This document shows positions 59 through 29,697 of a stretch of DNA of 35,543 nucleotides, piece by piece (positions within the stretch are counted from its first letter, which is position 1; each line of letters begins with the position of its first letter). A program made the translations under genes and the position numbers. The stretch is from an uncultured virus (IMG/VR IMGVR_UViG_2841629896_000002) (lineage: Duplodnaviria; Heunggongvirae; Uroviricota; Caudoviricetes), in the IMG/VR virus record IMGVR_UViG_2841629896_000002. The stretch is one strand, 5' to 3'. The notes under the pieces are model-generated. The model was not told the origin of the DNA. It was given only the letters and a program-made list of their open reading frames with translations, and did no database searches.

Positions 59-69
59 ATAAGACACGA

Positions 70-88
70 GCGCGGCGGGGGCGCCCCT
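70..88 (+). repeat. GC-rich intergenic hairpin repeat of LbH array (gcgcggcgggggcgcccct)
   Basis: Near-identical copies at 19780-19798 and 20545-20562; variants at 1316-1333 and 21160-21176. Confidence 0.85.
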
Positions 89-142
89 CTTTAAAACATT
101 TCATTCTAAAATTTAAATCTCTATATATAAAGGAATAGTGTT

Positions 143-2183: not shown

Positions 2184-2248
2184 AAACAAGCATGGGAGCG
2201 CCTTCTTGATAGCTATAAACGTATCATAAAAGAGAGAATTCATAAAAA

Positions 2249-2280
2249 AAAGCCGTGCCAAGTGATATGACGCGGCTTTC
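2249..2280 (+). terminator. Probable terminator hairpin after LbH array 1
   Basis: aaagccgtg...cgcggcttt stem; conserved copy at about 22095-22125. Confidence 0.55.
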
Positions 2281-7271: not shown

Positions 7272-7318
7272 AACGAACTCCTTGGTAATAGAGGTTTTTC
7301 ATTGACACTCTAAAGAGT

Positions 7319-7400
7319 GTCGGGCGCTGAAAAACACGGTACCAAGTCCGTCGTTACGCTTTCCCCGAAAGGGTATTGTATAGCATAACCACACCCGACA
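7319..7400 (-). ncRNA. c4/CI-like antisense RNA, copy 1
   Basis: Minus-strand stem tgtcgggtg...cgcccgaca. Internal ttggta and gtgtttttc are complementary to targets both upstream (about 7481-7501) and at the ant RBS (about 7281-7300). Confidence 0.7.
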
Positions 7401-7659: not shown

Positions 7660-8199
7660 ATGGTAACAGGTTTTTTACACGGTGTTGAAGTCGTCGAGGT
7701 TGACGACGGCACCCGCCCCCTTCGTGCAGTTCAGTCTGGCGTTATCGGAATTATCGGCACAGCACCTGATGCTGATGAACAAGCCTTTCCTCTTAACACA
7801 CCGGTTTTGGTAGCGGGCTCTCTTTCACAAGCCGCAAAACTCGATAAAACGGGTAAGCGTCAAGGTACATTACCCAATGCCCTTGATCTCATTTTCAAGC
7901 AAGTAGGCGCAATTGTCGTTGTCATCCGTGTGCAAGAAGGTGACAACGAAAATGCAACACTCACCAATATTCTAGGTGGTGTAAACGCAAATGGCGCTTA
8001 TGAAGGCGTTCATGCTTTCATTGGAGCACAATCCATTGTAGGACAAACACCACGTATTCTGATTGCTCCAGGCTTTACACATCAGCGCCCTTCCAGCGTT
8101 GGTATTGAAGGGAATGAAACTAGTGCAACTGCCAACCCTGTAGCAGCAGAACTGATTGGCATTGCAGAGCGCCTGCGCGCTATTGTGGTGCTTGATGCT
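7660..8199 (+). CDS. Tail sheath protein (P2 FI-like), 5' part, interrupted
   Basis: FLHGVEVVEV...FPLNTPV...PRILIAPGF; sheath-like sequence ends at AIVVLDA and resumes at 23765. Confidence 0.92.
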
Positions 8200-8214
8200 A
8201 GCAACACATTGATT
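8184..8214. other. attL of element 2: tgtggtgct-tgatgct-agcaacaca plus IHF box (8202-8214)
   Basis: 8/9 inverted arms around a 7-bp spacer; imperfect direct repeat of 23749-23773; reverse-complement aatcaatgtgttg matches the IHF consensus. Confidence 0.8.
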
Positions 8215-8374
8215 TTTATATATAATTTACTGTTTTGCATATTGAATTAAAGCCCCGAATATAGTAAGATTTTCTTATTCTAAACCCTCTCAGATTGAAT
8301 CAATTCATATCACTTGCTTGCACGTCAAAAGCGGGGCTGGTGTGTGGGTAAAATTTATACAAGAAAGGACTAAA

Positions 8375-9541
8375 ATGGCTCTTATGAACCGTCTTAATGC
8401 AAGATCTGTCGCAACATTGGGGGCTGGCAAATATAATGATGGCGCCGGCTTGTTACTTCATAAGCGTAAAGATGGAGGTGTTCAATGGATTTTACGGTAT
8501 ACCCTTCACGGACGCCGTCGTGAAATGGGATTGGGAGCGTTGCGAGATGTCTCTTTAAAAAAAGCACGTGAATTGGCAAACCAATGGCGGGCTGTTTTAC
8601 GTGAGGGGCGTGACCCTATTAAAGAACGCAACAAACAAAAGCGTGAGGCAATGCGCAATCTCCATTACTTAAAAGATATTGCTCTAGATGCTTTTGAAAG
8701 CCGTAAAGCTGAATTAAAGAATGATGGTGAGGCTTGTAATTGGTTTTTACATTTACGCCTCCATATTCTCCCTAAATTAGGCTGTCTACCCGTTTCAGAG
8801 ATTACACAAACAGAGATACGCGATACCCTTGCCCCTATTTGGCATACAAAAGCTGGAACTGCTCGAACAGCACTGATGCGTCTTAATCTTTGTCTCAAAC
8901 ATGCGGCTGCATTAGGGTTAGATGTTGATTTACAAGCAACAACAAAAGCACGCGCTCTTTTAGGCAAACAACGTCATAAAAAACAAAGCTTACCAGCCAT
9001 GGATTGGAGAGATGTGCCGGCTTTTTACCAATTTCTCTGTAAAACAACAACTATAAAACATTTAGCTTTGCGTCTGCTTATTCTGACAGGTGTCCGTACT
9101 AATCCTTTACGTCATATTCATAAAGATCAAGTTGATGGCGATATATGGACTATTCCTGCTGAAAATATGAAAGGAAAGCGTGATGCTACAACAGAGTTTC
9201 GCGTGCCCCTATCATCTGAAGCAATAAAAATAATTGAACAAGCCCGCTGTATCTCTAAAAGTGATTTCATCTTTTCACTTACCGGTCGTGGTCCTCTTTC
9301 ACATACGATGATGGCAGCGTATATGAGAAAAAATAAAATTGAAGCCTGCCCCCATGGTTTTCGCTCTAGTTTACGCGATTGGCTTGCTGAAACAACCGAT
9401 GCCCCCTATGAGGTCGCTGAAACCATTTTAGCTCATACGGTAGGCGGACAAGTAGAGCGTGCCTATCGTCGGACTGACTATTTAGAACAGCGTCGTGTCT
9501 ATATGGATAAATGGGCGGCTTATGTCACTGGTCAATCTTAA
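8375..9541 (+). CDS. int: P4-family tyrosine integrase with arm-binding domain
   Basis: KYNDGAGL..RRREMGLG; LTGVR; HGFRSS; LAH; AYRR. RBS aagga before ATG 8375. Confidence 0.95.
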   Translation: MALMNRLNARSVATLGAGKYNDGAGLLLHKRKDGGVQWILRYTLHGRRREMGLGALRDVSLKKARELANQWRAVLREGRDPIKERNKQKREAMRNLHYLKDIALDAFESRKAELKNDGEACNWFLHLRLHILPKLGCLPVSEITQTEIRDTLAPIWHTKAGTARTALMRLNLCLKHAAALGLDVDLQATTKARALLGKQRHKKQSLPAMDWRDVPAFYQFLCKTTTIKHLALRLLILTGVRTNPLRHIHKDQVDGDIWTIPAENMKGKRDATTEFRVPLSSEAIKIIEQARCISKSDFIFSLTGRGPLSHTMMAAYMRKNKIEACPHGFRSSLRDWLAETTDAPYEVAETILAHTVGGQVERAYRRTDYLEQRRVYMDKWAAYVTGQS

Positions 9542-10257: not shown

Positions 10258-11832
10258 ATGAGACAAGATAACAAAAATATTTTAGAGAATAATACGCCTT
10301 TAAATGATAATACTTGTTTAGAAGCCATTCCTTATAAACAAGCATTGCAACAAAACGGTTGGGGGGAAATAAAGCCTATCACGGCGGCTCTCTTACCCGT
10401 CGAGCCTTTTGACCCATTACAACTCCCAATGCCATTTATGGATTATGTTTATGACGTTTCAGAGCGTCAACAAGCCCCTATGGATTTTATTGCTGTCTCT
10501 GCTCTCTGTGCCTTGGCTGCTGTCATTGGCAATGGCGTGCGGGTTGCCCCAAAACAATATGATGATTGGATTGTGGTGCCTAATCTCTGGGGGGCTCTTA
10601 TTGGTCAATCATCAACATTCAAAACACCAGCCATGAAAGCCGCTTTAACTCCTATCACTTGCCTTCAAAAGAAATGGTATAAAGACTGGTTAAAACAGAA
10701 AGAAAAACAACAAATTGAAGAGAGGTTTGAAACTTTAGACAAACGAGAAAAGGAAAGACAAGCCAATAAAGCAATAAAAAAAGGAGATCTTGAAACAGCC
10801 CGTGCTCTTTTGTCTGAAACCCTCTCTAAAGACAATGTGCATGATGATGATGTCTCTCGTTTTATTGTCAATGATGTGACCGTTGAAAAGCTTGGGGAAC
10901 TCTTAAAAGAAAACCCCCGTGGTCTCTTGATGGTGCGTGATGAACTGGCTGGTTTTTTAGCTAATCTAGAAAGAAAGGAATATCAAACAGACCGTTCCTT
11001 TTATTTAACAGCTTTTAATGGAGATGATCAATTTACCTATGACCGTATAGAGCGTGGAACCATTTTTATCCCTTATGTCACTTTATCCATAATTGGAGGC
11101 ATTCAACCTTCACGCCTTATTCCCCTCATTCAAGCCATACAGCGTGGAATAAACGATGATGGTCTTATGCAACGCTTTCAAATGATTGTCTGGCCCGATG
11201 ACAATAAAGAATGGCAAGTGATTGATAGACCGCCCAATCAAGAGGGCTGGCAAAAGTATGAAGGGGTATTTCGTTCTTTTCGTGATAAACGCTTAGGGTC
11301 TCCAGAAAAGCCGCTGATCATGCGTTTTTCTCCTAAAGCACAAGTGCAATTTTATGAATGGTTGGAACATCTTCATAAAGAGGCAAAAGGAGGTAGTCAC
11401 TCAGAAAGTTTACAATCGCATCTTTTAAAAATGCCTAAGACCATAGCAAGCCTTGCGTTGATTTTTGAACTTCTTGATGGTGGTCGTTTTGAAATTGGAC
11501 CCTATGCCATCACAACAGCCTTGCGTTGGACAAGTTATCTATTAAGTCATGCCAAACGTCTTTATGCGGCGGGGGATAATTTAGCAACAGAGGGGGCAAA
11601 ATTGATTGTCGAGCGTTGTGATCATTTACCCGATGTTTTTACAGCAAGAGATATCTATAGACGCTGTTGGCATTCTTTAAAAGACAAAGAAGTCGTTAAA
11701 CAAGCTATAGAGCTTTTATGCCGTTGTAACTATATTCGTGAATTTCCTATAGAGGGCAATGAATTAGGTCGGCGTCCAGATAGACGTTATGAATGGCACC
11801 CTTTCGTCAAAAACAACAGCATCAAACAATAA
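10258..11832 (+). CDS. YfjI / DUF3987 family replication-associated P-loop protein
   Basis: PNLWGALIGQSSTFKTPA, DVTVEKL, RDELAG, GGIQP, DDGLMQRF; C-terminal GRRP winged-helix-like tail. Confidence 0.88.
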   Translation: MRQDNKNILENNTPLNDNTCLEAIPYKQALQQNGWGEIKPITAALLPVEPFDPLQLPMPFMDYVYDVSERQQAPMDFIAVSALCALAAVIGNGVRVAPKQYDDWIVVPNLWGALIGQSSTFKTPAMKAALTPITCLQKKWYKDWLKQKEKQQIEERFETLDKREKERQANKAIKKGDLETARALLSETLSKDNVHDDDVSRFIVNDVTVEKLGELLKENPRGLLMVRDELAGFLANLERKEYQTDRSFYLTAFNGDDQFTYDRIERGTIFIPYVTLSIIGGIQPSRLIPLIQAIQRGINDDGLMQRFQMIVWPDDNKEWQVIDRPPNQEGWQKYEGVFRSFRDKRLGSPEKPLIMRFSPKAQVQFYEWLEHLHKEAKGGSHSESLQSHLLKMPKTIASLALIFELLDGGRFEIGPYAITTALRWTSYLLSHAKRLYAAGDNLATEGAKLIVERCDHLPDVFTARDIYRRCWHSLKDKEVVKQAIELLCRCNYIREFPIEGNELGRRPDRRYEWHPFVKNNSIKQ

Positions 11833-12439: not shown

Positions 12440-15400
12440 ATGCTGCAATCTCTTAAGTCTGATCATGAACATGTCACGCTACGCTCTCTGTTGGAATATT
12501 ATCGTCAACAAGCAAAATCACCCCGTGAATTGGGAACGCTGTTTGAAAACCTTGTAAAGGTTTATTTAGCTGAAGACCCGTTGCAAAAGCAAGAATACGA
12601 AAAGGTTCAAACTTATTTGGAATGGGCTAAGGAACATGATGAAGATGGGCGTGATATTGGTATTGATTTGGTCGCTACAATCCGTGATCAAGGAGGATAT
12701 GCGGCTATTCAATGTAAATGCTATGATGCTTCTCACATCATTAAAAAAGAAGATATTGATAGCTTTATCGCTGCCTCAGGCAAAAAGATTTTTACGCGTC
12801 GTATTCTCGTTGATAGCACCGAAAGCAATTGGAGTGATAATGCTAACAACACTTGTGATGGTCAAGAAGTTCGTATTCAACAGATTAATCTGTTTGATTT
12901 AGAAAACAGTCAAATCGATTGGGGCGCTTATAAAGAACGAGGACAAGCCGTCCTTAAAGAGCAACCGAAAAAAAAGCTTTTAGATCATCAGATAGAAGCG
13001 CTTGAAAGAGTTTGTGAAGGTTTAAAAGAAGCAGACCGTGGCAAGCTTATTATGGCATGTGGTACGGGTAAAACATTCACCAGTCTTAAGATAGCAGAAA
13101 CCATAGCAGGAAAAGGCAAGCGTGTGTTGTTTTTAGTGCCCTCCCTTGCTTTGATGTCACAAACAATCCGTGAATGGACCCTTGATACAGAAATCCCCTT
13201 GCGTTCCTTTGCGGTGTGTTCGGATACACAAGTAGGCAAACGTCGTAAAAGTAAACAGGATGATGAATCGGGTCTTGATGCATCAGATCTTGTCTTGCCG
13301 GCGACCACGGATTCACAAGAGCTTGCGCGTAAAGCCAATAAGACCTCTCTTGATGTGATGACTGTGGTCTTTTCAACTTATCATTCCATTCAAGTGATTT
13401 CGGATGCACAAAAGGAATATGATTTACCCGAATTTGATCTGATCATTTGTGATGAAGCACACCGTACGACTGGGGTTGTATTGGGAACAGACAAGCATGA
13501 ATCTGAATTTATCAAGGTTCATGATAACAGCATCATACGGGGTAAAAAACGTCTGTATATGACTGCAACGCCTAAGATCTTTGCTGATAGTGCCAAAAAA
13601 CAAGCCCATGAGATGAATGGTATTCTGGCGTCTATGGATGATGAAGCGCTTTATGGAAAAGAGCTTTACACTTACACATTCTCAAAAGCCGTTAAGAATG
13701 AACTCTTAGTTCCTTATAAAATTATTATCTTAGGCGTTAATGAAGAGGAAGTCTGTGAATCCATTCAACATCTGATGACCGATGAGAATTATGAACTTAT
13801 CCTTGATGATAAAACCAAGATCATAGGCTGTTATCAAGCCCTTGCTAAAATAGATCTGAAGGTTGATTTGAGTGATGACCCTAACCCTATGCGTCGGGCT
13901 TTGGCTTTTTGTAAAGATATCAAGACTTCTGAACGTATCCGTGACACATTCAATTCTCAAGAAATACAGAAAGAATTATATAATCTTCATAAGCTCTATA
14001 AAGAGACGCCGCCTCTTCAGTGTACCTTTGCTCATATTGATGGAACGCAAAGTGCCAAGAAGCGCAATGAAGCCCTTGATTGGTTAAAGGAAGATGCGGG
14101 GGAAAATACTTGTCGTGTGCTGACCAATGTAAGATGTCTTTCTGAGGGTGTTGATGTTCCTGCTCTTGATGCGATCATGTTTTTACACCCGCGCAAAAGC
14201 CAAGTGGATGTGATACAGGCGGTGGGGCGTATCATGCGCCGTGCCAAAGGCAAGAAAAGAGGCTATATCATTTTACCCGTTGGGGTGCCGGCTGGGATTT
14301 CTGCTGAAGAAGCTTTAAAATACAACAAGAGATACAGTGTTGTCTGGCAAGTGATCAATGCTTTGCTTGCTCATGATGAGAATTTCGAAATCACCCTTAA
14401 CCAGATGATTTTAGGGCAAGACGTTAGTGATGTTTTGGAGATTAGCGCCTTAAAGAGCATGACAGCGGTTGAGGATAAAATCTATGTTTATGAGAAACCA
14501 GAAAGCGCGGGGCTTGAGATTGGAAAAGCAGCCTATGAACCACAAAAATACATTCATAGTGTTACAGGAAGATTACCCTTTTATAAAGAGTTTCCCAATG
14601 CCCTTAAAACCCTTTTGGCTAAGAAATTTACCCTTGCCGATTACTGGGGCATATGGGCTGGCAATGTTGCTGAAATTGCACAAAACCATATCACCCATCT
14701 TCAAAACCTGCTTGCTGATGAAAACAGTGAAGCCTTTCACGCCTTTGATGCATTTCATAAAGAACTAAAAAACAACTTAAACAGTGAAATAAAACAAGAG
14801 GAAGCGCTTGAGATGTTAGGACAACATCTTGTCACGCGTCCCGTGTTTGAAGCCTTGTTTGAGGGCAATGAATTTGTGCAAAACAATGCCATTTCGCAAG
14901 CCATGGAAAAGATTTTAGCTGAGTTGGATAAAACCAATATCAAGCAAGTATCAAAAGAGTTACAAGAGTTTTATGACAGTGTGAAATTCCGTGCCTCTGG
15001 GATTACCTCCCCCCAAGCAAGACAAAACCTTATTATCAAGCTTTATGAAGATTTTTTTACCAAGGCATTTAAGAAAACCACCGATAGGCTTGGGATTGTT
15101 TATACCCCCGTTGAGGTTGTTGATTTTATCATTCATTCTGTTGATGATGTGTTGCGTAAAGAGTTTGGCAAAAGCTTGGGGTCACGGGGTGTCTCCATTC
15201 TCGACCCTTTCACGGGAACGGGTACCTTTATCACAAGGCTTTTACAATCAGATCTCATCAAACCAGAGGATATGGAATATAAATTCCGTCATGATATCCA
15301 TGCCAATGAGATTGTCTTACTTGCCTATTACATAGCAGCGATTAACATTGAATCGACGTATCATAGTCTGATGAAAGGAGATTATATTCCCTTTAAGCAT

Positions 15401-17347
15401 ATTGGTTTGGCTGATACATTCCGGATGCTTGAAGAAAAGAACCTGCTACAGGAATTATTCAAAGAAAACAGTGAATATTTAGAGCATCAAAAGAAACTGG
15501 ATATCCAAGTTATCTTTGGTAACCCTCCTTATTCGGTAGGTCAAAAAAGCGCTAATGACAATGCAAAAAACACTCCCTATCCCATATTAGATGACCGTAT
15601 CCGTGAAACTTATGCTACTTATTCAACAACAAGTTTATTACAAGCACTTTATGATAGTTATATTCGTGCCATTCGTTGGGCTAGTGACCGTATTAATAAT
15701 GCTGGCGTAATTGGCTTTGTTACAAACGCGGGTTTTATTGATGGAAGTTCTATGGATGGTTTACGCAAGTGCCTCGTTGAGGAATTTAGCAGCCTTTATA
15801 TTTTCCATTTACGGGGCAATCAACGAACGTCTGGAGAACTTTCGCGAAAAGAAGGCGGCAAGATTTTTGGTTCTGGCTCTCGTGCCCCTATAGCGATTTC
15901 TATTTTGGTTAAAAATCCAAATGCACAACCACGTGGTAAGATATATTTTCGGGATATTGGAGATTATCTCAATAGAAAAGAAAAGCTTACGATAATTGAA
16001 AAATTTAGGAGTATTGATGGCATTACACGAAGTAAAAAAGGTTGGCAAATAATTACACCAGATAAACATGGAGATTGGATAAAACAAAGAGAAGCCGATT
16101 TTAATCGGTTTATACCCATGGGTATTAAAAATAACTCGATAGATGCTGCGCTATTTAGGGAAGTGTCACGTGGTGTGAATTCTGCTCGAGATGCTTGGGT
16201 TTATAACTTTTCAAGTAATGCATTAAATTTATCTATTCAAAAAACAATTGAATTTTTTAATATACAAAAACGTCTTATTGCTGAGAATCCATCTGTACCT
16301 ATAAGGAAGATTATTGATTATGATGCTACCAAAATTAGTTGGGCAAATGCTCTTATCTCTAAATTAAAGCAAGGAAGCAACGCAACTTTTGACGTTCATT
16401 TAAAGGTTCCAGTTCTTTATCGCCCGTTTATGATAACATGGCATTATGCATCACCATTACTAAATGAAGCGCTAGGGAAAACTCATCAATTTTTTAATCA
16501 GGATATCCCCCATAACCTTGGAATTTGCATTTCGGGAGAAGGAAGTCAAAAAGCTTTTTCTTGTCTCATGACAAATAAGCCTATTAGTTTTGACACATTA
16601 GAAAAATCAAGATGCTATCCGTTTATGCTCTATTGTGAAGAAAAAAAACATCATGACCATAGCTTATTTATGACAAATGAAAAAAAGAAAATTCGTGATG
16701 GCATTACAGATGCGGGATTAGCACGTTTTAAAGTTGCTTATCCTAATGAAACTATAACAAAAGAAGATATCTTTTATTATGTTTACGGTCTACTTCATTC
16801 AGAAGATTATCGCGCCCGTTATGCACATAATTTATGCAAAGAATTGCCTCGTATTCCTTGTGTTAAAAGTGCTAGTGATTTTTGGAAATTTGTAACAGCA
16901 GGACGTGAATTGGGTCATTTGCATGTGAATTATGAAGATGTAGAACCTTATCCAGTAACCTTTAAAAAGGGTAATCCAAAACAGACAGAGATCTCTAATC
17001 CCGAAAAATTCTATTATGTGACCGAAATGAAATTCGCAAAAGCAGGTAAAGAGAAAGATAAAACCACTGTTATTTATAATAGCAATATCACAATAACAGA
17101 TATCCCTCTTGAAGCTTATAAGTATATCGTCAATGGTAAACCCGCTCTTGAATGGGTTATGGGACGTCAATGTGTAAAGACGGATCAAAAGAGTGGCATT
17201 GTGAATGATGCCAATCGCTATGCTGTTGAAACCGTTGGCAACCCCGCCTACCCTCTAGAGTTATTTCAAAGGGTTATTACCGTAAGTTTAGAAACAATGA
17301 AAATCGTAAAAAACTTACCAAAATTAGAAATAAGAGAAACTGAATAA
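12440..17347 (+). CDS. Type ISP restriction-modification enzyme (LlaGI/LlaBIII-like)
   Basis: Mrr-like GIDL...IQCK, SF2 helicase (MACGTGKT, DEAH, TAT, QAVGRIMR), adenine MTase (DPFTGTG, GNPPY), TRD and ISP-type C-terminus in one 1635-aa chain. Confidence 0.93.
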   Translation: MLQSLKSDHEHVTLRSLLEYYRQQAKSPRELGTLFENLVKVYLAEDPLQKQEYEKVQTYLEWAKEHDEDGRDIGIDLVATIRDQGGYAAIQCKCYDASHIIKKEDIDSFIAASGKKIFTRRILVDSTESNWSDNANNTCDGQEVRIQQINLFDLENSQIDWGAYKERGQAVLKEQPKKKLLDHQIEALERVCEGLKEADRGKLIMACGTGKTFTSLKIAETIAGKGKRVLFLVPSLALMSQTIREWTLDTEIPLRSFAVCSDTQVGKRRKSKQDDESGLDASDLVLPATTDSQELARKANKTSLDVMTVVFSTYHSIQVISDAQKEYDLPEFDLIICDEAHRTTGVVLGTDKHESEFIKVHDNSIIRGKKRLYMTATPKIFADSAKKQAHEMNGILASMDDEALYGKELYTYTFSKAVKNELLVPYKIIILGVNEEEVCESIQHLMTDENYELILDDKTKIIGCYQALAKIDLKVDLSDDPNPMRRALAFCKDIKTSERIRDTFNSQEIQKELYNLHKLYKETPPLQCTFAHIDGTQSAKKRNEALDWLKEDAGENTCRVLTNVRCLSEGVDVPALDAIMFLHPRKSQVDVIQAVGRIMRRAKGKKRGYIILPVGVPAGISAEEALKYNKRYSVVWQVINALLAHDENFEITLNQMILGQDVSDVLEISALKSMTAVEDKIYVYEKPESAGLEIGKAAYEPQKYIHSVTGRLPFYKEFPNALKTLLAKKFTLADYWGIWAGNVAEIAQNHITHLQNLLADENSEAFHAFDAFHKELKNNLNSEIKQEEALEMLGQHLVTRPVFEALFEGNEFVQNNAISQAMEKILAELDKTNIKQVSKELQEFYDSVKFRASGITSPQARQNLIIKLYEDFFTKAFKKTTDRLGIVYTPVEVVDFIIHSVDDVLRKEFGKSLGSRGVSILDPFTGTGTFITRLLQSDLIKPEDMEYKFRHDIHANEIVLLAYYIAAINIESTYHSLMKGDYIPFKHIGLADTFRMLEEKNLLQELFKENSEYLEHQKKLDIQVIFGNPPYSVGQKSANDNAKNTPYPILDDRIRETYATYSTTSLLQALYDSYIRAIRWASDRINNAGVIGFVTNAGFIDGSSMDGLRKCLVEEFSSLYIFHLRGNQRTSGELSRKEGGKIFGSGSRAPIAISILVKNPNAQPRGKIYFRDIGDYLNRKEKLTIIEKFRSIDGITRSKKGWQIITPDKHGDWIKQREADFNRFIPMGIKNNSIDAALFREVSRGVNSARDAWVYNFSSNALNLSIQKTIEFFNIQKRLIAENPSVPIRKIIDYDATKISWANALISKLKQGSNATFDVHLKVPVLYRPFMITWHYASPLLNEALGKTHQFFNQDIPHNLGICISGEGSQKAFSCLMTNKPISFDTLEKSRCYPFMLYCEEKKHHDHSLFMTNEKKKIRDGITDAGLARFKVAYPNETITKEDIFYYVYGLLHSEDYRARYAHNLCKELPRIPCVKSASDFWKFVTAGRELGHLHVNYEDVEPYPVTFKKGNPKQTEISNPEKFYYVTEMKFAKAGKEKDKTTVIYNSNITITDIPLEAYKYIVNGKPALEWVMGRQCVKTDQKSGIVNDANRYAVETVGNPAYPLELFQRVITVSLETMKIVKNLPKLEIRETE

Positions 17348-18178: not shown

Positions 18179-18694
18179 GGTCTATTAAAAAGTATTTTTC
18201 TGATCTCTATAATTATCAGTTTCTCTTTAAATGTTTTCATAACAGTCTATAAATCGTAATTATCCTATTTATCGTTTCTCTTATGAAAATGAAAAATGAT
18301 GCGGTGGCTATAAAGAACATAACAGTTATAAAGAATGCGTAAAAACAGCAAGGTTTTATAATCATAATGCAAATGAAAGGGTTGGTTATAAGAGCGCGGT
18401 GCCTATTAAGATAGTGCAAATGATAAATGCGTTATAAACAAAATTCACAAAAAAATTAAAATTCATTTAGTAAAAAAATTTATAGGTTATAAAGATAAAA
18501 ATACGCATTATGAGAGCGTTTCTAAATATTATAAATGTATAGATTCAAAAAACAACGCAATCGTTTGATAAAGCCTATAATATAGCTTTAAATGCATATA
18601 AATATAAAAGAAGCACTTCATAAGCATAGGATATTATCAATACACAACGTATCTAAAAAAATACAAAAAAATATCAAAAAAGATATAATATTAA

Positions 18695-18723
18695 TTGACA
18701 ATAAATACGTATTTTGTTATATA
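18695..18723 (+). promoter_or_regulatory. Sigma70-type promoter for c4-like leader / LbH array with palindromic operator
   Basis: ttgaca-17 bp-tatata; palindrome aaatacgtattt (18703-18714) in the spacer. Confidence 0.6.
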
Positions 18724-18837
18724 AATACTCAAGTGATTAAAAACCACGAAGCAAACAGCGGATAGGTTACGAAACAGCCTCTCCCATTCTTTAAAATACT
18801 GACTTTCTTTTATGCTATCATTGGCATATAACGATTT

Positions 18838-18922
18838 TGTCGGGTGTGCTTATACCATACAATACCCTTTCGAGGGAAAAGTATAAGCAACGGACTGTTT
18901 GCCGTGTTTTTAGCACCCGATG
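18838..18922 (+). ncRNA. c4/CI-like antisense RNA, copy 2 (satellite-borne)
   Basis: Stem gtcgggtg...cacccgat. ctgtttgc and gtgtttttag are complementary to 18738-18758 and 18941-18960. Confidence 0.65.
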
Positions 18923-18969
18923 CCTTTATGGGCTGTCAATTAAAAACATTATTCAAACAGGATTTAAAT

Positions 18970-19767
18970 ATGACAAATATTTCAAAAATTACCCCCGTTA
19001 ATAAGAAAAAAACATCTAAAAAATACGAATTTACAGATGAAACGCGTGTATTTGGTAATCATACTCTTTATCGCATTAAAGCATTAAAAGACTTTGCTGA
19101 TGTTAAAGCGGGGGATCTAGGCGGCTTTATTAAAGATGAGAGTGATCTGTCTCATGATGGCAATTGCTGGGTTTATGATGATGCTATGGTTATCCAAGCA
19201 AGCGTTTCCGAAAATGCCAAAATACGCAATAATGCCTGTGTTTTGAATTATGCTAGGGTTTATGGTAATGCCGTGATTAGTGATAAGGCATGGGTTTTGA
19301 GTGATAAAGCACGTGTTTATGACAATGCAATCATTAATGGCAATGCAAAAATTGGGGGCTATGTTTTTGGCAATGCCGTTGTGAGTGATAATGCCGTTAT
19401 TACAGAGGGGGCTCTTATTTACGATAACGCCCGTGTTTATGAAAATGCTCATGTGAGTGGGCTTGTGTTTAATGATGCCCATGTCTACGGTAAATCACGC
19501 CTTGCTACGTGGTCAAAAGCTTATGGGAATGCTCATGTTTTTGATAAGGCTATAGTTTATGGCGGTAGCAATATTTATGATAATGCCAAGGTTTCTGGCT
19601 CGGCGCGTGTTGGTCCCTTTGCAAACATTCATGATAATGCGCATGTTTATGGCAAGGCACAAATTTGCCAATTTACAACGATTTATGGCAATGCGGTGCT
19701 TAATGAAAATAAGAAATTTTCTGAAGATGTCTGTAGTGCTGATCAGGCTATAAATAACGCTGCGTAA
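18970..19767 (+). CDS. Hexapeptide-repeat (LbH) protein 1 of array 2
   Basis: Conserved head plus hexapeptides; ATG 18970 after RBS agga. Confidence 0.85.
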   Translation: MTNISKITPVNKKKTSKKYEFTDETRVFGNHTLYRIKALKDFADVKAGDLGGFIKDESDLSHDGNCWVYDDAMVIQASVSENAKIRNNACVLNYARVYGNAVISDKAWVLSDKARVYDNAIINGNAKIGGYVFGNAVVSDNAVITEGALIYDNARVYENAHVSGLVFNDAHVYGKSRLATWSKAYGNAHVFDKAIVYGGSNIYDNAKVSGSARVGPFANIHDNAHVYGKAQICQFTTIYGNAVLNENKKFSEDVCSADQAINNAA

Positions 19768-19849
19768 ATAATGGCGCGGGCGCGGCGGGGGCGCCCCTCT
19801 TTAACCATCTCATTTTAAAATTTAAATCTTTTTATAAAGGAATTGTGCT

Positions 19850-20533
19850 ATGCAAAAGAAGTTTGCACTCACAAATGAGACACGTGTATTTAATCATAAA
19901 ACTCTTTATCGCATTAAAGCATTAAAAGACTTTTCTGATGTTAAAGCTGGTCAATTGGGCGGCTTTATTGAAAGTGAAAACAATCTCTCTCATGATGGCA
20001 ACTGCTGGGTATATGATAATGCTCTTGTTTTAAATCCAGCCCATATTTATGAAAATGCCAAGGTTTTTAATAACGCTATTATAATGGGTACTGTTTATGG
20101 CAATGCTCATATCTGTGATCGCGCCCGCGTTTATGCAAATGCTCATGTTTATGACAATGCGCATCTTTCTAATAATGCTTGGGTCTGTGGGCGGGTTTAT
20201 GGCAATGCAAAATTATCAGGAAATGCGCGTATTTATGGCAATGCCGTGGTTTATGATCATGCTGTTATCAGTGGTGCTGCTAAAATTTATGGCAAGGTTT
20301 ATGGCAAGGCTAGCGTGGGTGGGTATACTCAAGTCTACGGTTCTGTTTATGGCAATGCGAAAGTGACTGGTTATCACACCATTAGAGGTTTGGTGCATGG
20401 CAATGCAAGGTTAAAAAGAGATGGTTATTCATATGTCAAACAAAACTTTTACTATGCATATGGGATTCCTGAAGATTGTGAAATTTATGAAAATGATACC
20501 GTTGTAAAGATTAGTGAAAGTAACGCTGCTTAA
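19850..20533 (+). CDS. Hexapeptide-repeat (LbH) protein 2 of array 2
   Basis: Same head motif, YGNA repeats. Confidence 0.85.
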   Translation: MQKKFALTNETRVFNHKTLYRIKALKDFSDVKAGQLGGFIESENNLSHDGNCWVYDNALVLNPAHIYENAKVFNNAIIMGTVYGNAHICDRARVYANAHVYDNAHLSNNAWVCGRVYGNAKLSGNARIYGNAVVYDHAVISGAAKIYGKVYGKASVGGYTQVYGSVYGNAKVTGYHTIRGLVHGNARLKRDGYSYVKQNFYYAYGIPEDCEIYENDTVVKISESNAA

Positions 20534-20612
20534 ATAACGTGCGAGCGCGGCGGGGGCGCCCCCTTTAAAAATCTCATTTTAAAATTTAATCTTCTTATAA
20601 AGGAATTGTGTT

Positions 20613-21143
20613 ATGCAAAAAAAGTTCGCACTCACAAATGAAACGCGTGTATTGGGTAATCATACCCTTTATCGTATCCAAGCATTAAAAGACTTTTCTG
20701 ATGTTAAAGCTGGTGCCTTGGGGGGCTTTATTGAAAGTGAAAGCAACCTCTCTCATGATGGAAATTGCTGGGTCTATGATGATGCCATTGTATTTAAAAA
20801 TGGTCATGTTTATGAAAATGCAAGGGTTTATAACAATGCTATCGTGGCTGGTTATATCTATGGGAATGCCCATGTGTATGGCAAGGCTGCTGTTTCTAAT
20901 AATTCCCATGTCTATGGTAATGCTCATGTCTATGGCAATGCTATTATTTATGATAATGCCTATATTTATGACAATGCTAGGGTTTATGAATACGCTCGTA
21001 TAGCAAATGACGTGCATATTTTTGAAAATGCTCATATCCATGGCATTGCTGTTATTCGTGAAAATGTCGGCGGGTCTACTAAAATAAAAACCTATACTGA
21101 ACGTCTCTCTCCTTATGGCGAGTTAGAAATTGTCTGGGTTTAA
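20613..21143 (+). CDS. Hexapeptide-repeat (LbH) protein 3 of array 2
   Basis: Same head motif, YGNA repeats, distinct C-terminus. Confidence 0.85.
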   Translation: MQKKFALTNETRVLGNHTLYRIQALKDFSDVKAGALGGFIESESNLSHDGNCWVYDDAIVFKNGHVYENARVYNNAIVAGYIYGNAHVYGKAAVSNNSHVYGNAHVYGNAIIYDNAYIYDNARVYEYARIANDVHIFENAHIHGIAVIRENVGGSTKIKTYTERLSPYGELEIVWV

Positions 21144-21249
21144 TCAATAAAGCAGCGGCGGGCGTTGTGGGGGCGCTTGCTTTCAAACCAAATTTTTCCA
21201 TTCCAAATTTTAGAAAACGTTTAACACATTAGATTGTGAGGGTACCCCT

Positions 21250-22029
21250 ATGTGTAAAAAATACGAATTAACCAATCAAATTAAACAAATTAAAGAGAGA
21301 CTTACTAAGCAAATTATAAACCTTTATCGCATTCGGGCTTTAAGGGATTTTGATGATGTCAAGGCGGGTGCTTTAGGTGGTTTTATTGAAAAGGAAGTCA
21401 ACCTATCCCATGATGGCAATTGCTGGGTCTATGATGATGCTTGTGTCTATGGTCATGCCCGTGTTTATGATGATGCAAAAATACGCCATTATTCGCAAGT
21501 CTGTGGTCTGGTTTATGGCAATGCTGAAGTCTATAGTAAGGCTTTTATCTCTCAATATGCAAAGATTTATGATCAGGCTTGTGTTTATGGGAGTGCTCAT
21601 GTGTATGGCAATGTTTATGGCAATGCTCATGTGAGTGGTGCTGCCCGCGTTCTTGCTGATGCTCATATTTATGACCATGCGCATGTTTCTTATGATGCTA
21701 CGGTTTTTAGTTATGCCCGCGTCTATGGTCATGCTAGGGTTTGTGGCTCTGCTTGCATTTATAGCCATGCGAAAATTTATAATTATGCTGTGATTAATGG
21801 TCGTGCAAAGATTTATGGCAAGGTCTATGGCAATGCGCGCGTGGGGGGCTCTTGTGAGATTTATGGCTCTGTTTATGGTAATGCAAAAATCTCACATTGT
21901 GCAACGATCTGGGGGCGTGCTTATGGCAATGCAACAATCAACACAAAAAGCAAAGCAAAGTTAGTTCCTAAAAATTATGAGGTTTATCAAAGCGATAATG
22001 TCGTTAAGATTATTGATAAAACAGAATAA
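21250..22029 (+). CDS. Hexapeptide-repeat (LbH) protein 4 of array 2
   Basis: Near-identical to 1404-2183 beyond about residue 22. Confidence 0.85.
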   Translation: MCKKYELTNQIKQIKERLTKQIINLYRIRALRDFDDVKAGALGGFIEKEVNLSHDGNCWVYDDACVYGHARVYDDAKIRHYSQVCGLVYGNAEVYSKAFISQYAKIYDQACVYGSAHVYGNVYGNAHVSGAARVLADAHIYDHAHVSYDATVFSYARVYGHARVCGSACIYSHAKIYNYAVINGRAKIYGKVYGNARVGGSCEIYGSVYGNAKISHCATIWGRAYGNATINTKSKAKLVPKNYEVYQSDNVVKIIDKTE

Positions 22030-23748
22030 AAATAGGTATGGGGGTGCCTTCTTTATGGCTATAAACCCATCATAAAAGAGAGAATTCATAAAAGAAAGCC
22101 GTGCCAACTGATATGACGCGGCTTTCTAATGTCTATCCTTATGAATCAACCCTAATCAAGGTAATGACACATATATACAAAACATATCTATTACAAGCGC
22201 TCTATTAGAGATATGAAAACTTATCAAAAGGAACGTAAATGATGTATATGATCTTTAATCACTCACTTGAATGAGAGAGCCTATAAGCGCTTTTTGTTAC
22301 TCTCAAACGTATTAATCATAACACCCTCCTTTGTGAGGGGGGTTTTTAAAACAAAGCCCATGATCACAATGCTTCTTTTAAAACGTTTCAATAGACTGAC
22401 CTTAAAATTGAGTTGAGTGAATTGAGTAAAATTGAAACAACTTACATTCTAAAAATCAAAACGCTTTTTAGATTCATCTCAATACAATCAAAAGAAAATG
22501 CATCTTAAATGAATGTCTTATAAAAACGTTCTTTTTACATTTGCAAACGCTGGTTTTTAAAACAAGCTCTCATAAGATAAATAAACAACCGCTTTTATCA
22601 AATGGAAGGTTTTAAAAACTATTATAAACATTAGTTTCAAACGTTTAAACGTTCATTTAGAAAGGCTCTCATAAGCGTATTTTCACTTTTCATTAAATGT
22701 AACTTTTTACAAATAAGCTGGCTCAATTTTGAGTTGGCAAAATCAACCAGCTCAAATTCGAACTCGTTATCTTTAGAATAGAGTATTCTTTAATATTATA
22801 GCTCTTATCTAAAAATTTAGAAAAATCTCATGCCTTATGATGTTACAACGGTTTTGAATTTTACTTGCTTATCTTTGTCTAAAATAGATGCCCTCAAATT
22901 TGAGGAGACCTCTTTTGGTTTCATATTTTAAAACGATAACTTTTAAAACGTTTTTTATACCTGTCTAAGGTATATAGTATTCTACTTCTATGGCATTATG
23001 CGCCTCCATTTTTTTAGGGAAGCGAATATAGTTCTGTTCTTCAAAACTAGCCTGCAATCTATTCATTAAAAGGCTTTTCATTTCATAAGATATAAAAGAC
23101 CTCTTTATCGTTTTCTAAACTTTTAGAAAGCGTTTAAAAGCGATCTTATCCTTAATCCTTTTATGCAATCTTTATAAATTAAACCTATAAGCTTATGACA
23201 GTTTCAAACAGTTAATTTCTTTAATGCCATTTTAAAGGTTTTTCCCAATTGGGGAAAAATTATATGATCTGTATTTTCTATAAATGCGTATCTTTTGATA
23301 CAATTTACCTTATAACAGTTTCAAACGATTACCCTCTTATAGAATGATCTAATATTGCTATAACACTCTTTAGATTTTGCGCTCGCCAATTTTGGCGAAC
23401 GTTAATATGCGATTAACAATCCAATCTTTAAAACAAGCTGTGATCTTTAAACGTATGTTATCGATAATTCCAAACGACTAAATTTTTAAACAATGCGATT
23501 TGTGCTGTGATAAAAACGTATCATAAAATTTATGAACTGTTATGAATGATATCTGCTTTTCATTTCATTTGAACGTTTACATGCGTTATAATATTTGCAC
23601 CATGATTTGCTTTTTATGATCTATTCATACATGGCAATCTTCTATAAAAAATGGTCAAATGAATCACGTATAAAAGTGTGGATTCCTAAGTGGATTCATA
23701 TAAAATAATTTTACATAATATATTGATTTTTCTATATTTTATATAATA
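22030..23748. repeat. ~1.7-kb ORF-free tail, direct repeat of 2184-3826
   Basis: Long identical tracts, e.g. gcaatctattcattaaaaggcttttcatttcataagatataaaa. Confidence 0.85.
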
Positions 23749-23773
23749 TGTGGCGCCGGGTGCTCCAAACACA
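23678..23773. other. attR of element 2: gtggattc x2 (23678, 23690), IHF box (23716-23728), core tgtggcgcc-gggtgct-ccaaacaca
   Basis: Imperfect repeat of attL; sheath frame resumes at 23765. Confidence 0.8.
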
Positions 23774-24436
23774 ACAGATGAAGCAGCCCTTAGCACAGCA
23801 AAGGATTTTGATTCAAAACGCGCTATTCTCATTGACCCGTTTGTAAAGATAAATCGTGATGGCAAAATCATAGAACAGCCCGCGAGTGCAGTGGTTGCTG
23901 GTGTCATTGCCAAAAATGATTTTACTCATGGCTTTTGGCATTCCCCTTCTAATAAAGTGATCAATGGAATTGTGGGAACTGCGCGCCCCATTGATTTTTC
24001 CATTGGTGACAGATCAAGCCGTGCCAACCTTCTCAATGAACAAAACATCACAACCATTATTCGCGAAAATGGCTATCGTCTCTGGGGCAATCGCACACTC
24101 TCAAGCGATACAAAATTTGCTTTTTTATCCGTGGTGCGCACCGCAGATATGATCAATGATGCTATTTTGCGCGGACACCTATGGGCTGTCGACCGCAATA
24201 TCAAAAAAACGTACATGCATGATGTGAGTGAAAGCGTCAATGCTTATTTGCGTGATTTGAAAGCACAAGGCGCTATTCTTGGTGGGCGCTGTACGCCTGA
24301 TCTAGAGCTTAATACAGCAAGCGCCATTGAAAGCGGCAGAGTCTATTTCAATGTGGAATTTACCCCGACAACACCCGCAGAACACATCACGTTCCGTTCA
24401 CAAATCATCAATGATTACCTAGAGGAGATCTTTTAA
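23765..24436 (+). CDS. Tail sheath protein, 3' part
   Basis: PNTTDEAA...GFWHSPSN...GYRLWGNRT...GAILGG...PAEHITF. Confidence 0.92.
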   Translation, partial: PNTTDEAALSTAKDFDSKRAILIDPFVKINRDGKIIEQPASAVVAGVIAKNDFTHGFWHSPSNKVINGIVGTARPIDFSIGDRSSRANLLNEQNITTIIRENGYRLWGNRTLSSDTKFAFLSVVRTADMINDAILRGHLWAVDRNIKKTYMHDVSESVNAYLRDLKAQGAILGGRCTPDLELNTASAIESGRVYFNVEFTPTTPAEHITFRSQIINDYLEEIF

Positions 24437-29565: not shown

Positions 29566-29648
29566 TGTCGGGTGTGGCTGTGCCATAAAATACCCTTTTG
29601 GGAAAAGCATAGCGACGGACTGTGTACCGTGTTTCTTAGCACCCGGCA
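29566..29648 (+). ncRNA. c4/CI-like antisense RNA, copy 3
   Basis: ctgtgta (29620) and gtgtttcttag (29629) are complementary to 29463-29486 and 29667-29688. Confidence 0.7.
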
Positions 29649-29697
29649 CTCTCTTTAGAGTGTCAATAAGAAACTTCTAACTACACAGGGGTTCATC

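Follow-up and report, generated by a model that had tools for sequence, protein, structure and literature searches.

A GC-rich stem-loop behind the stop codons of arrayed solenoid genes in Bartonella, most likely a weak terminator or RNA-end protector

In one genus, Bartonella, and in one type of gene array, the spaced tandem arrays of YdcK-type solenoid genes, the boundaries between genes carry a short GC-rich motif that lies on the sense strand just past the stop codon and can fold into a hairpin. This motif is most likely a weak terminator or an RNA-end protector, not a dedicated recombination site. More specifically, it may be a terminator-derived 3' RNA stem-loop that would serve, between cistrons, as an attenuator or an end protector; we hold this reading tentatively, at a little under an even chance, and both the action of the motif as RNA and its job there are what we infer from the comparisons described below.

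The window, that is, the whole stretch of 35,543 nucleotides that was analysed, belongs to a Bartonella genome of 2.23 Mb (38.5% GC) with a second contig of 41 kb. Its solenoid genes encode YdcK-type beta-solenoid (left-handed beta-helix, LbH) proteins (PF18836, Hexapep; NCBIfam YdcK_fam) and match PHROGs 5070 and 7964, whose function is unknown, while their near relatives on named Bartonella plasmids are all annotated as "hypothetical protein." A conserved solenoid head of 60 aa is found in 40 copies in this genome, in two kinds of arrays: (i) spaced arrays, in which the genes are separated by spacers of 79-106 nt, and which number seven on the chromosome (two of them within the window) in addition to one single gene on the small contig, and (ii) five abutting arrays, in which stop and start codons overlap or abut. 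The abutting arrays, with three short solenoid genes each, lie outside the window (near 740k, 753k, 967k, 1017k, and 1446k), and all five follow an anti-repressor gene, four of them directly. The spaced-array genes considered here are the following:

18970..19767, + strand: array 2 gene A, YdcK-type, 265 aa, with an N-terminal extension
19850..20533, + strand: array 2 gene B, YdcK-type, 227 aa
20613..21143, + strand: array 2 gene C, YdcK-type, 176 aa
21250..22029, + strand: array 2 terminal gene T, YdcK-type, 259 aa
1404-2183: array 1 terminal gene

In array 1, the gene at 143-1306 (387 aa) consists of two solenoid units in an in-frame fusion, with the second head near 656 (KKYEFTNQTR...), and contains no stop, hairpin, or spacer at its internal head-to-body joint. 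Almost every non-terminal gene closes with two alanine codons and a stop, with ATAA coming next (GCTGCG TAA ATAA); this is seen in the window at 19756-19767, 20522-20533, and 47-58, and at most junctions in related loci. The double-alanine C-terminus of the solenoid proteins resembles the end of the SsrA degradation tag, and these proteins might therefore be protease substrates.

Array 2 sits in an insert of about 15.5 kb which separates the N-terminal from the C-terminal part of a phage tail sheath gene (window 7660-8250 and 23750-24436) and which also carries an integrase (8318-9541), a helicase-like gene (10258-11832), and a restriction-modification gene; as an island, this insert lies inside the remnant of a P2-like prophage. 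The type ISP-like restriction-modification gene (12440-17347) encodes a helicase/methyltransferase of 1635 aa, and a gene of this kind is located just upstream, in the same orientation, in four of the eight spaced arrays. Its counterpart on B. tribocorum pBT01 adjoins a five-gene array and carries the annotation of a type ISP restriction/modification enzyme. The solenoid arrays may be part of a defence island. More generally, the arrays sit on multi-copy mobile islands, which have only an integrase in common, plus the type ISP-like restriction gene in those four arrays.

An earlier note on this DNA, made from its letters alone, had drawn attention to the motif. Its 18-mer GCGCGGCGGGGGCGCCCC was recovered by a window search at 70, 19780, and 20545 on the + strand, 11, 12, and 11 nt past the stops (TAA) that end at 58, 19767, and 20533, respectively; no further match was present in the window even at three mismatches, and none was expected from 100 shuffles. 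Each of the two terminal genes is likewise preceded by the variant GGGCGTTGTGGGGGCGC (at 1316 and 21160), and degenerate versions follow these genes, as the note had said (GGGAGCGCC at 2194 and GGGGGTGCC at 22040). The 5' arm of the hairpin is found 8-10 nt past the stop, on the sense strand, in every window copy. The copies are as follows, copy 2 being the feature under study:

68..96, + strand: junction hairpin copy 1, past the stop at 56-58, with 5' arm GAGCGC at 68-73 (one A.C mismatch), loop GGCGGGG at 74-80, 3' arm GCGCCC at 81-86, and pyrimidine tail CTCTTTAAAA at 87-96
19778..19804, + strand: junction hairpin copy 2, -13.8 kcal/mol, with 5' arm GGGCGC at 19778-19783, loop GGCGGGG at 19784-19790, 3' arm GCGCCC at 19791-19796, and tail CTCTTTAA at 19797-19804
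20543..20571, + strand: junction hairpin copy 3, with 5' arm GAGCGC at 20543-20548, loop at 20549-20555, 3' arm GCGCCC at 20556-20561, and tail CCTTTAAAAA
1309..1339, + strand: terminal-type junction hairpin of array 1, between the stop at 1304-1306 and the terminal gene, -13.6 kcal/mol, with outer AAAGCA/TGCTTT pairs around GGCG..CGCC and a G-rich loop
21149..21183, + strand: terminal-type junction hairpin of array 2, before terminal gene T, -13.8 kcal/mol, with AAAGCAGCG..CGCTTGCTTT enclosing GGGCGTTGTGGGGGCGC
2190..2206, + strand: degenerate motif remnant past terminal gene 1, CATGGGAGCGCCTTCTT
22036..22052, + strand: degenerate motif remnant past terminal gene 2, GGTATGGGGGTGCCTTC

The claim that the hairpin punctuates every LbH gene boundary holds for all five intergenic boundaries of the window and for the 15 unique spaced junctions of the genome, but not for the abutting arrays (0 of 6 unique junctions) nor for the internal joint of the fused gene. 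A covariance model search, a check proposed in the earlier note, gave 16 genomic matches with an E value no higher than 0.1, and all 16 lie inside the seven chromosomal spaced arrays; the remaining GGGGGCGC sites of the genome are unrelated coding DNA. The REP/BIME class of repeats, whose members are scattered over the extragenic DNA of a whole genome and come with a RAYT, is out, with no RAYT gene in the genome and all 16 model matches confined to arrays. Beyond this genome, a junction query of 161 nt (tail, spacer, and start of the head) matched 46 of 90 genomes of the genus, the source genome counted, and one relative has at least 40 matches to junction DNA. The strict motif pattern was absent from all 297 sampled genomes, which cover 134 other genera of the family, and also from three genomes of the same genus that fell in that sample. 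Similarly, no common hairpin was seen at gene ends in the arrays of the same family carried by Lactobacillus phage LfeInf and Liberibacter phage SC1.

No window match to Rfam reached the gathering score; at E up to 5, in 18500-22300, the sole spacer match was mir-788 (19808-19880, minus strand, E 1.8), which is at chance level (19.2 bits vs 90). A search of the Bartonella and YdcK literature turned up no account of either the arrays or the motif, and PMC3814891 yielded nothing on them. Elsewhere in the genome, a hairpin of the form GGGCG-N9-GCGCCC followed by CCTCTTTCC precedes two ant genes (near 755.5k and 969.5k), its 3' arm and tail being identical to those of the junction motif, and a related GGGCG..CGCCC hairpin is found at two other ant genes (near 738.9k and 1016.2k). 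Among the draft genomes of the genus, many contigs end inside or beside arrays (L016, L020, L024, L025, L028, L031, L038, and others), and the copy numbers in drafts are therefore underestimates. The repeated junction is one reason why draft Bartonella assemblies break here, and it is a handy marker of the arrays.

Conservation of the junctions was assessed across the collected loci, in which 227 gene ends beside a head were gathered; judged by the 70 bases that follow the gene end, 166 of these were unique. When the key was lengthened to 30 nt of tail and 100 nt downstream, 98 unique junctions of 30-200 nt were retained. A strict core, defined as a run of at least four G followed by Y-R-C-Y, is present in 88 of these 98 spaced junctions; seven others have a one-base variant, one is a premature-stop artefact, and two have no core. 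Mean pairwise identity by region, from an alignment of 105 unique junctions, was as follows:

Gene tail, -60 to -12: 0.36-0.44
TAAATAA: 0.89
Last 5 nt ahead of the motif: 0.35
GC-rich motif itself: 0.79-0.85
Tract that follows it: 0.50
Middle of the spacer: 0.63
Surroundings of the RBS: 0.51
First 120 nt of the head (final bin missing): 0.69-0.78

With 0.79-0.85 in the motif against 0.35 and 0.50 in its flanks, the motif is therefore an island of conservation between variable patches, and it is common to spacer types that have otherwise diverged. It does not decay as a neutral spacer would, a behaviour which the earlier note had named as evidence against its reading. By contrast, its statement that the whole stop-to-RBS spacer is conserved stands for the stop and the GC motif only, since both the 5 nt ahead of the motif and its tail are variable. 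The loop contains four G in all of the 80 unique internal cores, and no columns are more invariant than those of this G-run and the 3' arm. A readthrough or frameshift signal is out, because indels whose lengths are not multiples of three alter the distance from stop to hairpin.

Whether the conserved letters are conserved as a stem is less clear-cut in the arrays. The GGGCGC/GCGCCC stem of the earlier note is perfect at 19778-19796, but the copies at 68-86 and 20543-20561 have GAGCGC as 5' arm and thus an A.C mismatch. All six pairs can form in 54 of the 80 internal cores and five of six in 17, and when the first 48 nt of the spacers are folded, this stem-loop comes out at about -13 kcal/mol. 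Folds of whole single spacers were no better than those of shuffles (z -1.2 to +0.7 in the five intergenic spacers). In a covariation test of the 80 internal cores, 95.0% of cells were paired, vs 95.0 +/- 0.3 in shuffles (291 of 500 shuffles as high), and RNAalifold kept four pairs with a covariation term of -0.03; the paired fraction being that of the shuffles, pairing in the array copies is not separable from sequence conservation. A double change was seen in two stem pairs of these cores, and one array copy (L040) has a compensated U-A at pair 4. Wobble and A.C departures at pairs 2-5 are about even by hand count (9 vs 7 unique sequences), with no strand-specific signal, and the mean fold energies of the sense and opposite strands (-12.7 vs -11.3 kcal/mol) are not decisive. 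The structured leader described below served as positive control for this hairpin test, with 7 of 22 pairs compensated among 12 sequences.

The tract that follows the stem is rich in pyrimidines, which make up at least five of its first six bases in 78 of the 80 cores. It contains on average 3.65 T in 8 nt vs about 2.4 expected from 30.5% T; tails with five or more T in 8 nt are limited to 8 of the 80 cores, some lineages have CUCUCUAA, without a U run, and a terminator consensus scan flagged no motif copy. Two forms of the hairpin are distinguished: the long form, with a 6-bp stem and a 7-nt loop, and the short form, with a 7-bp stem and a 5-nt loop. The junction type that precedes terminal genes (GGCGCCTGCTTTC) has the hairpin design of the single-gene plasmid copies, with the U run cut to three.

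These single-gene copies are the most telling ones. In five plasmids, the small contig of this genome included, a single-gene unit with no LbH gene downstream has kept the short form, CAGGCGC-GGGGG-GCGCCUG, right past its stop. In pBGR3, this hairpin is followed by CUUUUU, with a run of five U, and by no second terminator; pBHa has a hairpin of the pBGR3 type with one G.U pair. In the B. krasnovii plasmid, the hairpin reads UAGGUGU-GGGG-GCACCUA, with two fully compensated pairs and one wobble. In pTT0105, the original stem is broken by an A.C mismatch (4 of 5 pairs), and the G-run and 3' arm are now the 5' arm of a new hairpin of 9 bp. These copies show that the element is part of the 3' end of the gene upstream of it, that it has the position and form of a terminator, and that its pairing is under selection.

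The arrays look like transcription units in their own right. Their borders in the window are marked by the following features:

18839..18929, + strand: sRNA-Xcc1-like structured leader preceding the first gene of array 2, a full-length match at 44 bits vs a gathering score of 53
2244..2280, + strand: canonical terminator-like hairpin closing array 1, with an A-run, GCCGTG..CGCGGC, and TTTC
22094..22127, + strand: canonical terminator-like hairpin closing array 2, z -3.4 for 22022-22135

Elements similar to sRNA-Xcc1 (RF02221) occur 16 times in the genome, at 39-52.5 bits over the full model, and in none of 14 control genomes; they lie ahead of spaced arrays, about 40 nt from the first gene, and ahead of anti-repressor (Ant/Bro-type) genes. 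Two further ones are present in the window, at 7310-7400 (minus strand) and 29566-29656 (plus strand). A conserved TATAAT/TATAAC box is located a few bases upstream of the element, which is therefore probably the 5' end of a transcript. Each spaced array has one structured leader. No sigma-70 hexamers were flagged at 9/12 or better in the window spacers; the common internal spacer type reaches 8/12 at best (TTTAAA-N16-TTAAAT), and a few spacers of other types reach 9/12. Past the terminal genes, the motif is degenerate, and the canonical terminator comes next. With one leader, promoter-poor spacers, and a terminator at the end, the arrays thus look like operons and the motif would be intercistronic. 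The usual terminators of this genome, as seen in hairpins after long ORFs, have paired A and T runs around mixed stems; the genome-wide count of T after stems is confounded by the T runs within those stems. In the metatranscriptome contigs of one study, gene bodies were covered and three spacers were uncovered, but unitigs break at repeats, which makes these contigs uninformative on RNA ends or read-through.

The RNA processing or stability signal put forward in the earlier note is the reading that best fits the sense-strand position, the retention after single genes, the compensated pairs, and the U5 run, and it would imply the following scenario. A small RNA stem-loop, descended from an intrinsic terminator and built of 5-7 G-C pairs, a G-run loop, and a C/U tract, would close the 3' end of each gene unit. 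The stand-alone unit would have comprised an sRNA-Xcc1-like leader, one YdcK-type gene, the hairpin, and a second, canonical terminator; when such units were tandemised under one leader, the hairpin would have stayed between the cistrons. Because the U tract of the array copies is short and interrupted, most polymerases would read through, and the likely job of the hairpin would be to attenuate transcription and/or to shield the upstream cistron at its 3' end once processing has taken place in the A/U-rich spacer. A by-product would be homology for ordinary recombination that shuffles the variable solenoid bodies, supplied by the block formed by the last ~12 nt of the gene, its stop, the hairpin, the spacer, and the first ~170 nt of the next gene. 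Several observations speak against this scenario: the G-run of the loop is conserved like the arms, although a generic terminator or end protector needs no such loop; the U tract is poor; covariation is absent from the array cores; and one lineage persists after loss of the motif. In that lineage (G032 and G025), at least six sequence variants of the junction that leads into the terminal gene have lost the G-run and the 3' arm, and the arrays have multiplied despite this loss.

One alternative is a terminator relic without present function, carried in a junction block that is homogenised by gene conversion and by transfer between phage-derived islands. An alignment of 31 junction units, taken from the loci that match best, shows high DNA similarity all the way from -12 through the first ~170 nt of the following gene, third codon positions of the heads included. 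The absence of covariation in the 80 cores, the survival of arrays in the lineage that lost the motif at one junction type, and the location of the arrays on multi-copy mobile islands point in the same direction. However, homogenisation alone should not spare 19 nt between patches at 0.35 and 0.50 identity, nor does it sit well with a motif that is common to spacer types diverged elsewhere or with the compensated pairs of the plasmid copies; a functionless relic is considered unlikely.

The invariance of the loop raises another alternative, namely that the hairpin is a sequence-specific RNA or DNA binding site for a factor encoded by the phage or island, which would read the G-run. Possible models are a boxB-type hairpin with its antiterminator and the recognition hairpin of a processing enzyme. 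The four G found in every core, the invariance of the 3' arm, conservation by sequence rather than by covariation, and the confinement of the motif to one gene family on mobile islands would all be expected of such a site. Nevertheless, no candidate partner was found; the islands share no more than the integrase and, in half of the arrays, the type ISP-like restriction gene; and the lengths of arm and loop differ between the long and short forms. A binding site of this kind is accordingly judged rather improbable.

The earlier note also raised the possibility of a recombination site for cassette shuffling, loosely analogous to integron attC. The shuffling part of this idea is borne out by the junctions: 29 upstream and 34 downstream body types occur in 60 combinations among 105 junctions, and one downstream body is found with up to five upstream bodies. 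Up to about -10, junction polymorphisms show linkage to the upstream body; at 19758-19802 (the zone from stop to motif), linkage to the two bodies is equal, and beyond this zone it is stronger to the downstream body. In addition, hybrid spacers consist of an internal-type left half and a terminal-type right half, joined just past GGGGGCGCC. Breakpoints were placed by a two-rate change-point method in pairs of junctions that share one body (at least 95% identity) and not the other, 52 of these pairs sharing the downstream body and 36 the upstream one. DNA contig "joints," which fall in heads and spacers alike and probably reflect paralogous arrays, were left out. The change-points are distributed as follows, in pairs and in distinct cluster combinations:

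Gene tail: 22 of 88 pairs; 6 of 28 distinct
Before the motif: 13 of 88; 3 of 28
Motif: 13 of 88; 3 of 28
Tail tract: 4 of 88; 4 of 28
Rest of the spacer: 18 of 88; 5 of 28
Head: 18 of 88; 7 of 28

Some crowding is seen near the motif, with 10 of the 28 distinct change-points within the 38 nt around it, although placement is biased toward the variable patches beside the motif. The other change-points fall in the gene tail, the rest of the spacer, and the head; with breakpoints on both sides of the motif, there is therefore no single fixed crossover. Sequence comparison supports ordinary homologous exchange within the conserved block of ~270 nt, and this block is a plausible source of homology for the shuffling.

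The machinery that a dedicated site would call for was searched for in this genome. The best match to the integron integrase model TIGR02249 scored 84.5 bits vs a cut-off of 265, and corresponds to Xer-like genes far from the arrays; the two integrases of the window match only the generic PRK09692 domain, and the island integrases are of the generic P4 type. The attC core GTTRRRY is absent from all five window spacers, and one lone RYYYAAC was found, at 21219. Neither a reverse transcriptase (PF00078) nor a Y1 transposase (RAYT, PF01797) was matched in this genome, which is 100% complete; a diversity-generating retroelement, which has a GC-rich IMH and a hairpin behind its variable gene but would need a reverse transcriptase and a template repeat, is thus out. 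A G-quadruplex or R-loop that starts recombination at the boundaries would be another form of signal, and the G-rich 19-mer does score 1.79 by the G4Hunter rule, but the 25-mer that includes the C-rich 3' arm scores only 0.72, and the stem-loop seen in the spacer-start folds would compete with it. Despite the shuffled neighbours, the linkage switch, and the hybrid spacers, a dedicated recombination signal, attC-like or G-quadruplex-based, is very improbable: the integron integrase and attC cores are missing, all cassettes are paralogues, the breakpoints run from tail to head, and the motif is kept past single genes that have no array.

If the terminator-derived stem-loop is the correct reading, it would explain how a large family, with 40 heads in this genome and at least 40 junction matches in one relative, is expressed from operons. 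It would also account for the mosaicism of the arrays, a short terminator-derived junction both tuning expression between cistrons and supplying the homology for shuffling.

Among known systems, intercistronic stabiliser hairpins include the REP elements of the E. coli malEFG operon and the puf stem-loop of Rhodobacter capsulatus. Like these hairpins and like intrinsic terminators, the Bartonella motif is a GC-rich stem-loop just past a stop, followed by a pyrimidine or U tract, in a probable operon, and one plasmid copy has a full U5 run. Unlike an intrinsic terminator, it has a short and interrupted U tract in the arrays and a conserved loop sequence, and it also differs from the typical terminators of its own genome. 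The attC sites of integrons are 57-141 nt long, with cores R''(RYYYAAC) and R'(GTTRRRY). The Bartonella motif resembles them in that it is structured and recurs in direct orientation at the 3' end of every gene in a tandem array poor in promoters, but it measures ~19-30 nt, comes without IntI or R''/R' cores, and separates genes that are all paralogues, with scattered breakpoints. Pilin antigenic variation in Neisseria depends on a G-quadruplex, a single one upstream of the expression locus. In both cases a G-rich sequence lies beside variable gene copies that recombine; in Bartonella, however, there is one such sequence per cassette, its runs allow no more than two tetrads, and a stable hairpin is in competition.

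The closest described system is that of the promoter-early stem-loops (PeSLs) of T4-type phages (Arbiol et al., 2010, PMC2839356; Comeau et al., 2014, PMC4122927). A PeSL is a conserved composite motif that extends from the stop codon to the Shine-Dalgarno sequence and start of the next gene and contains a polyG/polyC stem-loop (PMC2839356) as well as a consensus sigma-70 early promoter. The genes beside PeSLs, in lytic T4-type genomes, are unrelated ORFans; homologous recombination between copies swaps, deletes, and inserts genes, and mini-circles, which arise by exchange between neighbouring copies, have been shown. The Bartonella motif is similar in that it is centred on GGGGGCGCCCC, lies between stop and start, has the same style of stem-loop, and adjoins variable genes of unknown function; its neighbours are likewise shuffled, with change-points in the junction block, a pattern that comes from sequence comparison rather than from observed events. 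In contrast to PeSLs, the common internal spacer of Bartonella reaches only 8/12 to sigma-70, the genes look co-transcribed from one leader, and the motif flanks paralogues of a single family on prophage-derived islands and plasmids. It is conceivable, though we regard it as quite improbable, that the junction block is a bacterial counterpart of the PeSL, partly selected for the swap, gain, and loss of solenoid bodies on Bartonella islands and plasmids; the G-rich hairpin of the non-template strand would then raise exchange, and the arrays would be a diversification system of a phage-derived family, often beside a type ISP restriction gene. The reading as a terminator-derived stem-loop, if correct, would extend the PeSL idea from lytic T4-type phages to the chromosomal islands and plasmids of a genus of intracellular pathogens.
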